Position numbers and translations under genes: made by a program. The notes under the pieces were generated by a model. That model was not told where the DNA came from, did not search any database, and worked only from the letters and a program-made list of their open reading frames with translations. 64,000 nt of DNA from Eledone cirrhosa (taxonomy: Eukaryota), in contig OZ024754.1 in NCBI GenBank assembly GCA_964016885.1, positions 21,390,001 to 21,454,000 on the forward strand, written 5' to 3'. Below are positions 1-4,135 of this stretch, piece by piece (position 1 is the first letter of the stretch; every line of letters starts with the position of its first letter).

Positions 1-673
1 GTTAAGTATATACTATATTAACTAGTTTTAATAAATCGTCTAGATATTAAGTATATACTATATTAACTACAGTTTTAATAAATTATCTAGATGTTAAGTA
101 TATACTATATTAACTACAGTTTTAATAAATTGTCTAGATGTTAAGTATATACTATATTAACTACAGTTTTAATAAATTATCTAGATGTTAAGTATATACT
201 ATATTAACTAGTTTTAATAAATTGTCTAGATGTTAAGTATATACTATATTAACTAGTTTTAATAAATTGTCTAGATATTAAGTATATACTATATTAACTA
301 CAGTTTTAATAAATTGTCTAGATGTTAAGTATATACTATATTAACTACAGTTTTAATAAATTGTCTAGATGTTAAGTATATACTATATTAACTAGTTTTA
401 ATAAATTGTCTAGATGTTAAGTATATACTCTATTAACCACAGTTTTAATAAATTGTCTAGATGTTAAGTATATACTATATTAACTACAGTTTTAATAAAT
501 TGTCTAAATGTTAAGTATATACTATATTAACTACAGTTTTAATAAATTGTCTAAATGTTAAGTATATACTATATTAACTACAGTTTAAATAAATTGTCTA
601 GATGTTAAGTATATAGCGGAGATTACTGGTTATATGAATGTAACAAAACGAGACAATGTTTGTGTATATAATA

Positions 674-679
674 TTTAAT
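674..679 (-). terminator. Putative LTR polyadenylation signal ATTAAA
   Basis: Minus strand ATTAAA about 60 nt from the LTR 3' end, followed by CA dinucleotides and a T-rich stretch. Motif evidence only. Confidence 0.35.
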
Positions 680-893
680 TAACGGTAGATAGAATACTTG
701 ACATGTCAAAGATAGATGTTAGAATGAAACAAAGTTAGTAGTTACCGTTTTGATTGCCAGGCAAATGCGGCTGGCAGAGGGCGCCTGGCTAAGGCCAGGC
801 GCCTGTTGGCCAAATTAATGGCAGAGCCAAATGAGAAGACTCTTGACCTGGTGCCGAAAAGGCAAAGAGAGAGAGGAAGCTTAAAGTTGTTAG

Positions 894-900
894 TTTTATA
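894..900 (-). promoter_or_regulatory. Putative LTR TATA box (equivalent in every LTR)
   Basis: Minus strand CCCTATAAAA about 80 nt into the LTR, with a pyrimidine-rich CTCTCTCTCTTT tract about 25-30 nt downstream. Confidence 0.5.
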
Positions 901-978
901 GGGCTCTCACCGGAAGTTGCAGAAAGGGTTCCACTTCCCGTCTAGATCCCAATCAAAACAAGGGAGACAACCGCTACA

Positions 979-991
979 TAACCTCCCGCCA
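979..991 (-). promoter_or_regulatory. Polypurine tract (plus-strand primer site)
   Basis: Minus strand TGGCGGGAGGTTA lies immediately before the TGTAG start of the 3' LTR. Confidence 0.7.
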
Positions 992-1854
992 GAATTTTAG
1001 TGTATAAAAATCGAAATGAAAATATGTAGCAAGTTGGCGAGAATGTTGTAACAGGCATGAAAATTACGACAAAAGAATGTTTGGAAAAATCAATGATAGA
1101 TATCAAGGTAGCCAACCGCTCTTGGCCAGAGAACGACTGGACATCCATCTATCCATCACCCAAAGATACAATGTAATAAAGTAAAAGTAATAAAAGAGCT
1201 CAAAGTTCAAAATATAGTTCACAGGTGTGCAATCACATGACAGCGGGAAAGAAAGTGTTCCAGAGAATGAATGCAGGTGGTTTCTGTTCTGTGGTATATC
1301 GTGAAATTTCCAACCTCCGAATGGATTTTCTCACAGGAAGAGTGCTGCAAAAATAAATTCTCTGGCTTTGGTGAAGCTGTGTTGATGTATTGCTGTTGCT
1401 GTTATATTGCTGTTGCTGCTGCTGTTGTCTCGCTGAGTGAGCGTATTCGGTGTTTAAATTCACAGTAAAAAAATTTTTTTTTAGAAAAAAATGAGTTGCG
1501 CAAAGTGCTAGAAATAGCAGCCGAAGTTGATGGTCGATGTTGAGAATGCGTTGACCTGGAAGGGTCAAGAGGCCAGCGACCAGAGAAATAAGCATTCTTA
1601 ATAAATGCGCGGTTATCAACGGTAAATTTACATTGTAAATTTATAAACCGGCAAATAGAAGAATATAGCTTAAGGCTGAAGAATCCCTGGTGATAAATGG
1701 CGTGCGGCTGTCTGTGAGAAGAGACATCTCAGTGAATCAAGAATTTATGCTGCCTACACGTGCCAATACAAGGTTGAAAAAAAATATTTCTAACGCGCGA
1801 GAAAATGATAGTGCAATTTTGAAAGTGACAATGATGAAATGTTTTTTAAAGAAT

Positions 1855-1860
<6 letters not shown>

Positions 1861-1897
<37 letters not shown>

Positions 1898-2020
1898 GTT
1901 TTGAAAGAGTTCGTTGTAAGAAACGAGAAACATATATATATATCGTGAAATGTTTTTTTTTTGTTTTGAAAGTGTTCGTTGTAAGAAACGAGAAACATAT
2001 ATATATATATTGGTGAAATG
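1861..2020. repeat. Poly-T (35 nt) plus 65-bp internal tandem duplication in the LTR element interior
   Basis: GTTTTGAAAG(A/T)GTTCGTTGTAAGAAACGAGAAACATATATATAT occurs at 1898 and 1963, each preceded by a T-run. Confidence 0.85.
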
Positions 2021-2219
2021 CGACAGTTAATTGATGCGTGAGAGAAAAAGTATGTCTGTGCGAATTCCACATGTGCGTGTGTGCGTGTCCTTGAGTATTT
2101 TCATAGTTTGTCGCTAAATTTGCTGTGTATTCGTAATGTTACTCACAAAACCAGATGTGCTATTTTTTTCTTTTTTTGGGGGGGTGACCACTTATAGCGA
2201 TGAACGGCTGCGTGTTCGT

Positions 2220-2237
2220 ATCACGTCGGGGTCACCA
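2220..2237 (-). promoter_or_regulatory. Primer-binding site complementary to the 3' 18 nt of tRNA-Trp (present in the 6 complete copies)
   Basis: Plus strand reads ATCACGTCGGGGTCACCA, the 3' end including CCA of metazoan cytosolic tRNA-Trp as recalled. It lies 1 nt from the LTR. Confidence 0.9.
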
Positions 2238-2238
2238 A

Positions 2239-2605
2239 TATAGCGGAGATTACTGGTTATATGAATGTAACAAAACGAGACAATGTTTGTGTATATAATA
2301 TTTAATTAACGGTAGATAGAATACTTGACATGTCAAAGATAGATGTTAGAATGAAACAAAGTTAGTAGTTACCGTTTTGATTGCCAGGCAAATGCGGCTG
2401 GCAGAGGGCGCCTGGCTAAGGCCAGGCGCCTGTTGGCCAAATTAATGGCAGAGCCAAATGAGAAGACTCTTGACCTGGTGCCGAAAAGGCAAAGAGAGAG
2501 AGGAAGCTTAAAGTTGTTAGTTTTATAGGGCTCTCACCGGAAGTTGCAGAAAGGGTTCCACTTCCCGTCTAGATCCCAATCAAAACAAGGGAGACAACCG
2601 CTACA
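2239..2605 (-). repeat. 5' LTR of copy 1 (367 bp)
   Basis: Followed on the minus strand, after 1 nt, by the PBS TGGTGACCCCGACGTGAT. Confidence 0.93.
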
Positions 2606-3274
2606 AGTATATACTATATTAACTACAGTTTTAATAAATTGTCTAGATGTTAAGTATATACTCTATTAACCACAGTTTTAATAAATTGTCTAGATGTTAA
2701 GTATATACTATATTAACTACAGTTTTAATAAATTGTCTAAATGTTAAGTATATACTATATTAACTACAGTTTAAATAAATTGTCTAGATGTTAAGTATAT
2801 ACTATATTAACTACAGTTTTAATAAATTGTCTAGATGTTAAGTATATACTATATTAACTACAGTTTTAATAAATTGTCTAGATGTTAAGTATATACTATA
2901 TTAACTACAGTTTTAATAAATTGTTTAAATGTTAAGTATATACTATATTAACTACAGTTTAAATAAATTGTCTAGATGTTAAGTATATACTATATTAACT
3001 ACAGTTTTAATAAATTGTCTAGATGTTAAGTATATACTATATTAACTCCAGTTTTAATAAATTGTCTAGATGTTAAGTATATACTATATTAACTACAGTT
3101 TTAATAAATTGTCTAGATGTTAAGTATATACTATATTAACTACAGTTTTAATAAATTGTCTAGATGTTAAGTATATACTATATTAACTACAGTTTTAATA
3201 AATTGTCTAGATGTTAAGTATATACTATATTAACTAGTTTTAATAAATTGTCTAGATGTTAAGTATATACTATA

Positions 3275-4135
3275 CTAGCAGTAAAGCCCGGCGTTGCTCA
3301 GGGTCGCTCAGTAGCTGTGTTAAAGTTACAATGTTAAGTTTCTTTCTTGGCTTAAAAACTATAGTGTCTACTGTGCAGACTTGCATGTGGTGTTTTTGAT
3401 TAATATTCCCTCAACCAACAATATGCCTTATGAAGTTAAGAAAACATAACGATAACCCGAATGTTATAACAAAAGAGGATGCTGGGGATAGAAACTGCAC
3501 TGGTTATTTATTAACAAAGATCGAAAATGTAAACACTGCAACGCAGAGAAAAACATTAACGTAACCAAATTATCAGTTATGTCTGTCTGCACGCCTATAT
3601 CACCTCTCTGCACGACTGTCTGTCTGCACGCCTATATCACCTCTCTGCACGACTGTCTGTCTGCACGCGTATATCACCTCTCTGCACGACTGTCTGTCTG
3701 CACGCCTAACGACGAAATATTTGCTTGTTTTACGTAGTCTTTAAATAGACTTGTTTTCAAGTAAAAATATTGTTTTAAGATGCTTTTAAATGGAAATGAA
3801 GCAAAACGGAAGCTTAGTGTTCGAACTGATGAATTTTGGAGGTCAATATTTTGCTGGCTCGACAACTGTTAAAGCCAGCGTAATTTTTCACGTAAGACGC
3901 TCAATGTAAACAAAACAAAGGGAAATAACTGATAACTTACGCTCAAAAATCGATACATTATATTCGATTTCGTCACATAGGGTGGGTCAATTTGAAATTT
4001 TTTTTTTCCGATTTCTTCGCTAGGGCTCAATGTACAAGTATAGCAATTTCGGTGCAATTCCGTGAGAGATTCTAAGAGGAGATGTGTGCCAAAAATCGAT
4101 AGACAGACAGACAACCACAGTTTTATATATATAGA
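3275..4135 (-). mobile_element. Non-autonomous Helitron (861 bp), subtype A, copy 1
   Basis: Minus strand starts TCTATATATATAAAA followed by a (GTCT)n microsatellite, and ends CCCTGAGCAACGCCGGG-CTTTACTG-CTAG (GC hairpin 12 nt from the end). Removing it restores the satellite TACTATA|TTAACTA: an A|T target with no TSD, as expected for Helitrons. Confidence 0.9.
3581..3708. repeat. 37-bp minisatellite (~3.5 copies) inside the Helitron
   Basis: GTCTGTCTGCACGCCTATATCACCTCTCTGCACGACT three times plus a partial copy. Subtype B has an extra 16 bp (GTCTGTCTGCACGACT). Confidence 0.92.

Follow-up and report, generated by a model that had tools for sequence, protein, structure and literature searches.

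Long tRNA-complementary primer-binding sites (PBSs) have a precedent in a Cer element of C. elegans. The closest described system is the primer over-extension sequence of lentiviruses and spumaviruses (Muthuswami et al. 2002, cited in PMC13191261; PMC8599865), in which complementarity to the primer runs past the 18-nt PBS and across position 58, and is tied to read-through of incompletely modified A58. According to the same sources, m1A58 is the main stop of plus-strand synthesis in HIV, which also halts to a minor extent at 55, 54 and 37, m1A58 is stated for Trp primers (PMC13191261), and strand transfer is expected to fail for strong-stop DNA that is over-extended (PMC8599865). m1A has been described as causing both arrest of reverse transcriptase (RT) and misincorporation (PMC4787781), and AMV RT as being blocked by m1G, with tandem m2,2G26/27 remaining a block (PMC4787781, PMC8062790).

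The element described here, from Eledone cirrhosa, carries a tRNA-Trp PBS of 32 nt that likewise continues across position 58. With a probability of roughly 0.78, we consider this site to be a frozen copy of the primer tRNA-Trp, made through read-through past position 58. A sequence-only reading of this DNA had offered two explanations, a genomic fossil of RT read-through or a selected, extended pairing site. The former is well supported by recurrent independent captures, an excess of mismatches at 58, ends that cluster close to 37 and 26, and the presence of CCA, and the two are compatible, as an accidental origin and a possible later use.

The element and its extended primer-binding site

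The window, that is, the whole 64,000-nt stretch of DNA that was analysed, consists of a 47-bp satellite array carrying two types of insert. One of them, an element of 1,994 bp, lies on the minus strand and is bounded by a 4-bp target-site duplication (608..611 and 2606..2609, the same 4 bases at both ends) and by identical 367-bp LTRs (3' LTR at 612..978, 5' LTR at 2239..2605). A purine-rich run adjoining the 3' LTR (979..990) is, from its position, the putative polypurine tract, and the internal region that follows (991..2180) is non-coding: the element strand has only two stop-to-stop frames (133-135 aa), neither of them above the Pfam cut-off. No tRNA gene was found inside the window by ARAGORN or Rfam. 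With direct LTRs and a target-site duplication, a PBS and a polypurine tract within the LTRs, no coding capacity and dispersed insertions, the element has the features of a non-autonomous LTR retrotransposon. Six complete copies (PBS cores at 2220, 7918, 13616, 17301, 21657 and 27343) and one cut by the window end all have common flanks, and are thus a single insertion amplified together with the satellite, not six events. The satellite itself forms higher-order repeats of about 3.7-5.7 kb throughout the window (1-64000), and since these include both inserts, the transposons were amplified with the array. The second insert (3278-4125 and later copies, 848-864 bp) contains internal short tandem repeats, and its ends look like those of non-autonomous Helitron-like elements. 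Genome-wide, the extension pattern of the family to which the window element belongs (hereafter the window family) has at least 549 matches, and flank anchors that leave the extension free have at least 431. The dispersed copies have differing 4-bp duplications and LTR pairs that are 90-100% identical in 19/20 copies, and the family is dispersed by retrotransposition.

Within the minus-strand element, window positions 2206-2237 correspond to positions 45-76 of the host tRNA-Trp(CCA) at 31/32 sites. The canonical 18-nt PBS (2220..2237, tRNA positions 59-76) is perfect in the window copy, the sole mismatch is a T in tRNA sense at 2219, opposite A58, and the extension (2206..2218) is complementary to positions 45-57. 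The host genes used for this comparison, 15 in 5 fetched loci and confirmed by ARAGORN, have A58 and G37 in 15/15 cases and vary mainly at 5, 47 and 57; the isodecoder with C47/G57 is an exact match over positions 45-73 save 58, and thus matches the extension at 13/13 positions. These genes bear out both the PBS of about 32 nt with a lone mismatch at 58 and the 13 nt of matching sequence beyond it that had been read from the element. CCA is carried by the element and missing from the host tRNA-Trp genes. For any given PBS, a further 13 nt of matching sequence would arise by chance with a probability of about 6e-8, and a control search with the reversed pattern gave 0 matches. Elsewhere in the genome, a tandem cluster (G000:C4:353394900-353457976) has more than 25 T-arm matches, which are tRNA-Trp genes where fetched, mostly of an A57 isodecoder.

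Extended tRNA-Trp matches across the genome

A perfect 18-nt Trp PBS with CCA has at least 353 matches in the genome. Among the first 100, about 33 are clearly extended by an eye count and come from six origins, and the others end at 59 or within a few bases of it. A search for long extensions returned 35 places; since a match at 41-46 was required, ends at 42-57 are under-sampled in this set. When all fetched loci were pooled, 182 places fell into 38 junction clusters, or about 35 after merging of rearranged window-family copies, which represent independent junctions in CsRn1-type elements. In the 35 long extensions, the base at position 58 is A in 22, T in 8, C in 3 and G in 2, all three substitutions thus being represented. 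Position 58 is non-A in 13/35 of them, whereas unconstrained sites (positions 48 and 65-70) are mismatched in 9/245 cases (p=5e-8). Removal of six copies that share a junction leaves 9/29 versus 7/203 (p=1.4e-5), with the correct A58 in 20/29 captures; an excess of mismatches at 58 only is the signature of m1A58 on RT.

Which base stands at 58 apparently varies with the family, possibly through RT-specific misreading: it is non-A in 7/7 loci with one kind of LTR tip (L010, L037, L087, L092, L109, L113, L121), and A in 4/4 loci with another kind (L039, L043, L045, L088). One of the former, L109, is a palindromic locus with two back-to-back extended PBSs that reach 27 and about 38, both with T58.

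The end points are also unevenly distributed. Among the 28 ends located at 41 or lower, the range 35-41 accounts for 22 and the range 27-30 for the other 6, leaving none at 31-34 or beyond 27; such clustering has p of about 2e-4 under a constant stop rate, in a post-hoc test. The pooled loci add a third group of ends at 44-46. We take m1G37 and m2,2G26 to be present in tRNA-Trp, as the basis for stops near 37 and 26, and we infer these modifications and m1A58 for the host tRNA-Trp. One capture (L010/L080) combines A58>C with G37>C, and in another (L106), 5 nt spanning position 37 appear to have been skipped; with a mismatch at 37 in only 1/11 captures passing that position, a signature of misincorporation at G37 is not established.

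In the window element, the extension is followed by a duplicated stretch of 15 nt from the LTR's U5 tip (2191..2205), and then by a decayed 10-nt remnant of a second PBS (2181..2190) with one change at the position-72 equivalent; in a related subfamily (L017/L029), the second PBS is an intact match for 11 nt. The duplicate resembles the subfamily's own LTR tip, with 14 nt identical to that of L271, and is joined through a GG microhomology with tRNA 45-46. This full layout of extension, U5 tip and second PBS is found in the window family, in L177 and in L052. In L177, a close relative that shares 89-91% identity with the related subfamily, the capture is a separate one and ends at 51 with A57 and A58, and L052 belongs to a coding family, with an extension of only about 3 nt. 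At least 9 nt are common to the junction and the element's own U5 tip in 4/35 long junctions, versus 11/1164 cross-family null pairs. The U5-tip duplication is not shown by 31/35 long junctions, and in other junctions the extension is followed by integrase sequence or unrelated DNA. Taken together, these junctions suggest that over-extended strong-stop DNA may be rescued by microhomology.

Some further observations concern this region. In several copies (L013, L016, L152, L182), a 46-nt unit of PBS, extension and U5 tip is tandemly duplicated, probably through slippage between the two U5-tip/PBS repeats. In the main lineage, both PBS copies are altered at the position-72 equivalent (2181-2190, 2233), and a hairpin formed between these two sites is predicted for the window copy. 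The U5 tip is hypervariable 7-14 nt from the LTR end (window 2245-2258; L287-L306), with 4.3 changes per column versus 0.9 over the remaining LTR; in 10/19 copies, the two LTRs differ from each other in their first 22 nt, often with 98-99% identity elsewhere.

Under the read-through reading, plus-strand strong-stop synthesis would have passed the normal stop at 58, probably misreading the methylated A58, and RT would have stalled near position 45. The 3' end would then have re-annealed via the GG microhomology to U5 on the minus strand, a step that requires a 1-nt loss beside the microhomology, so that the U5 tip and the primer would have been copied a second time. The second copy of the PBS would have completed strand transfer, giving the order LTR, PBS, extension, U5 tip, second PBS and leader, and the extension would thereafter have been inherited by the family through its RNA. 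Taken alone, the T58 of the window family could also be a later non-templated addition at the strong-stop end, or an ordinary mutation. Two copies of a coding family extended to 45 (L064, L122) carry a 1-nt insertion exactly at the 58/59 boundary, as expected of such an addition.

Inheritance, likely helper and rival explanations

The history of the extension was followed in 90 of the first 100 listed flank-anchor matches and the window copy (n=91). Comparison of position 58 across these dispersed copies, as had been proposed, gave T in 89, C in 2 and A in 0. The single mismatch reported for the window copy stands for that copy but not for the family, since A67 and T72 accompany T58 as core mismatches in 73/91 copies, and only 4/91 have the tRNA base at both 67 and 72. 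No tRNA-Trp gene with A67 was found, the 7 matches to a pattern that excluded T58 and some flanks all being elements, so that the core mismatches are read as mutations of the element. On a tree of the 64 best-covered copies (27/91 being left out for incomplete coverage), position 72 changes 11 times and position 67 three times, compared with a background rate of 0.7 changes per column, and these changes are read as probable reversions to the tRNA base, seen in 12/64 copies at 72 and 3/64 at 67. The window copy nests among A67/T72 copies, yet matches the tRNA at both positions, and thus appears to be a tRNA-templated revertant whose core was repaired from the primer. By contrast, 58 never changes to A on this tree, even though read-through most often yields A; the extension and its T58 thus appear to be inherited rather than re-copied in each cycle, with tRNA-templated correction occasionally fixing 72 and 67 and never reaching 58. 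The core repair events most likely stopped at 59.

Within the extension, positions 45-57 changed 2 times versus 9.3 expected (Poisson p=0.005; 64 copies), an earlier run with 29 copies having given p=0.053. However, 11% of 13-column windows and 3/38 non-overlapping windows are equally conserved, and the adjacent duplication, which is not tRNA sequence, is nearly so. Selection on tRNA pairing, the other origin offered by the sequence-only reading, is consequently suggested by the low number of changes but not shown. A candidate claim that no other part of the element is as conserved as the extension (0/1074 windows) was withdrawn, having been inflated by a non-homologous outlier and gappy columns.

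A partner for the non-coding element was sought among coding families. One gag-pro-RT family with the CHCC motif (L265) repeatedly forms chimeras with the window family, including head-to-head PBS fusions, swapped LTRs and a swapped leader, and these point to co-packaging. It is likely the helper of the window family, the link being drawn from the chimeras, as BLAST found no LTR similarity between the two. About half of 33 listed matches to this family have a PBS of 18 nt, some with a 1-nt insertion or A67, and the others are mostly chimeras, rearranged ends or 3' LTRs; the comparison of PBS length with the partner thus gives 18 nt for the likely helper versus 32 nt for the window family. In several fusions (L006/L275, L078/L276, L282-L284), a helper LTR with exactly 18 nt of PBS is reversed and joined to a window-family leader with a 3-nt microhomology at the joint; these look like strong-stop DNA ending at 59. 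The sequence-only reading had also tied the extension to the non-coding nature of its carrier. The window element is indeed non-coding, but the trait is not peculiar to it, since two gag-pro-coding families have extensions of their own, one to 45 with A58 and one to 37.

If the extension were selected as a longer grip on the primer, it would let the element out-compete its 18-nt helper and tolerate core mismatches; this is compatible with a read-through origin, and we place it somewhat below even odds. Positions 45-55 are invariant in 64/64 copies while most cores carry A67/T72, and with such a core the predicted duplex energy about doubles with the extension (-27.7 kcal/mol without it, -55.9 kcal/mol with it), in a calculation that leaves out what it costs to unfold the tRNA. 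A mismatch opposite m1A should cost little, and the extra 13 bp may help the element to hold its primer despite two core mismatches. The near-equal quietness of the duplication and of other windows weighs against this, however, as do the helper-family copies with A67 but without any extension, another family whose extension has decayed in several copies, and L269, a window-family member with the 18-nt PBS and leader of the helper. L269 has LTRs that are 100% identical, which indicates that its integration took place without the extension. That the extension helps in primer capture is plausible and weakly supported. An unlikely alternative is that the site is a long primer over-extension sequence, serving as a landing pad for strong-stop DNA that has read through, which it would rescue, and being rewritten from the tRNA whenever this happens, as the lentiviral precedent would suggest (PMC13191261, PMC8599865). 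Rewriting is hinted at in the 37-ended coding family, with moderate support, where T58/T47 gave way to A58/C47 in seemingly separate branches and A58 appears again in L197, and two copies of another family with a common junction differ at 58 (L104 with G, L112 with T). The tree of the 37-ended family is small (11 copies), with two partitions that differ in detail, and in the window family the absence of A58 from all 91 copies, set against its frequency among independent read-throughs, argues against rewriting, as does an end at 45, which is not the commonest stop.

The remaining rivals concern the template. Cleaved 3' tRNA halves could have served as primers, with RT running off the end of the fragment and no stop at a modification. 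Cleavage in the anticodon loop would likewise account for ends at 35-41, and their spread over 7 positions, not sharp at 38, is counted in favour of this idea; it would nevertheless still need read-through of 58 and would leave the ends at 27-30 and 44-46 unaccounted for, so that we regard it as slightly less likely than rewriting. DNA-level recombination with a genomic tRNA-Trp gene or a tRNA-derived SINE, T58 being a chance mutation, would draw on the many clustered tRNA-Trp genes in the genome. It is nonetheless very improbable, and largely refuted by the distribution of ends: no capture goes past 27 in the 5' direction or enters the flanks of a gene, mismatches accumulate at 58, and all captures are contiguous with a CCA-ended PBS beside an LTR tip.

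Wider meaning and comparison with known systems

In vivo, the stop at m1A58 and the fate of read-through products have so far been argued mostly from HIV in vitro and from mutant cells, and dozens of integrated, independent products now provide in vivo end points and misreads for the RT of a retrotransposon. Tentatively, and at odds of about one in three, animal genomes would hold a heritable germ-line record of tRNA modifications (misreads at 58, stops at 37 and 26), slip-back onto U5 would routinely rescue "dead-end" over-run strong-stop DNA, and one accident would have given a parasitic element a 32-nt grip, which allowed its core to fall to two mismatches and its copies to exceed those of its 18-nt helper more than tenfold. 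The same tally could be applied to any genome and primer tRNA, yielding sites of modification and RT-specific read-through. In addition, captures explain in a simple way how PBS regions could become long or duplicated, and the window family lends itself to testing, in nature, whether a non-coding element competes better when its primer pairs over more than 18 nt.

Within the Ty3/gypsy elements, the window element resembles the CsRn1 clade in its tRNA-Trp PBS and 4-bp target duplication (PMC2582038). The CsRn1-type CX2HX9CX3C Gag motif described there is found in the likely helper and in other Trp-primed coding neighbours, and is absent from the window element, which encodes nothing, so that its placement in the clade rests on cis features and the helper chimeras. 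Recurrent genomic read-through captures with such ends and mismatches are not reported in the literature searched, whose coverage was incomplete and mostly without subscription papers, but several systems share some features with them. In mouse ETn, MusD and IAP elements, as in the window family, the commonest PBS has two mismatches and revertants are scattered (PMC7472051). The available part of that account describes no extension, and its authors did not find mismatch at modified positions; moreover, reversion at 72 and 67 in the window family is well below 50%, unlike in these mouse elements. The cqgypsy_1 element of Culex likewise has a long CCA-ended tRNA sequence at its PBS, and the end of the LTR is directly duplicated alongside this sequence (PMC3286476). 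It differs in being a single case, with two whole tRNAs head to head that were read as a SINE-like insertion, and no modification signature is reported in the part of that account available. Bipartite primer interactions of Ty1 and Ty3 also involve T-arm pairing outside the core PBS (PMC5371799), but in discontinuous segments, whereas the match here is a single uninterrupted antisense copy that has its lesion at 58.

The primer over-extension sequence thus remains the closest parallel. As in that system, complementarity to the tRNA lies directly past the 18-nt PBS, here for 13 nt (45-57). The lentiviral sequence (PMC13191261, PMC8599865) stops at 55 after about 4 nt, whereas the window extension ends at 45 and not at the second stop of 55/54, and extensions in this genome reach 45, 37 or 27 and arise repeatedly. 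Products that stop at 37 are described as inactive templates in HIV and are integrated here, and, unlike the lentiviral sequence with its rewriting, the extension of the window family appears to be passed on without being rewritten.
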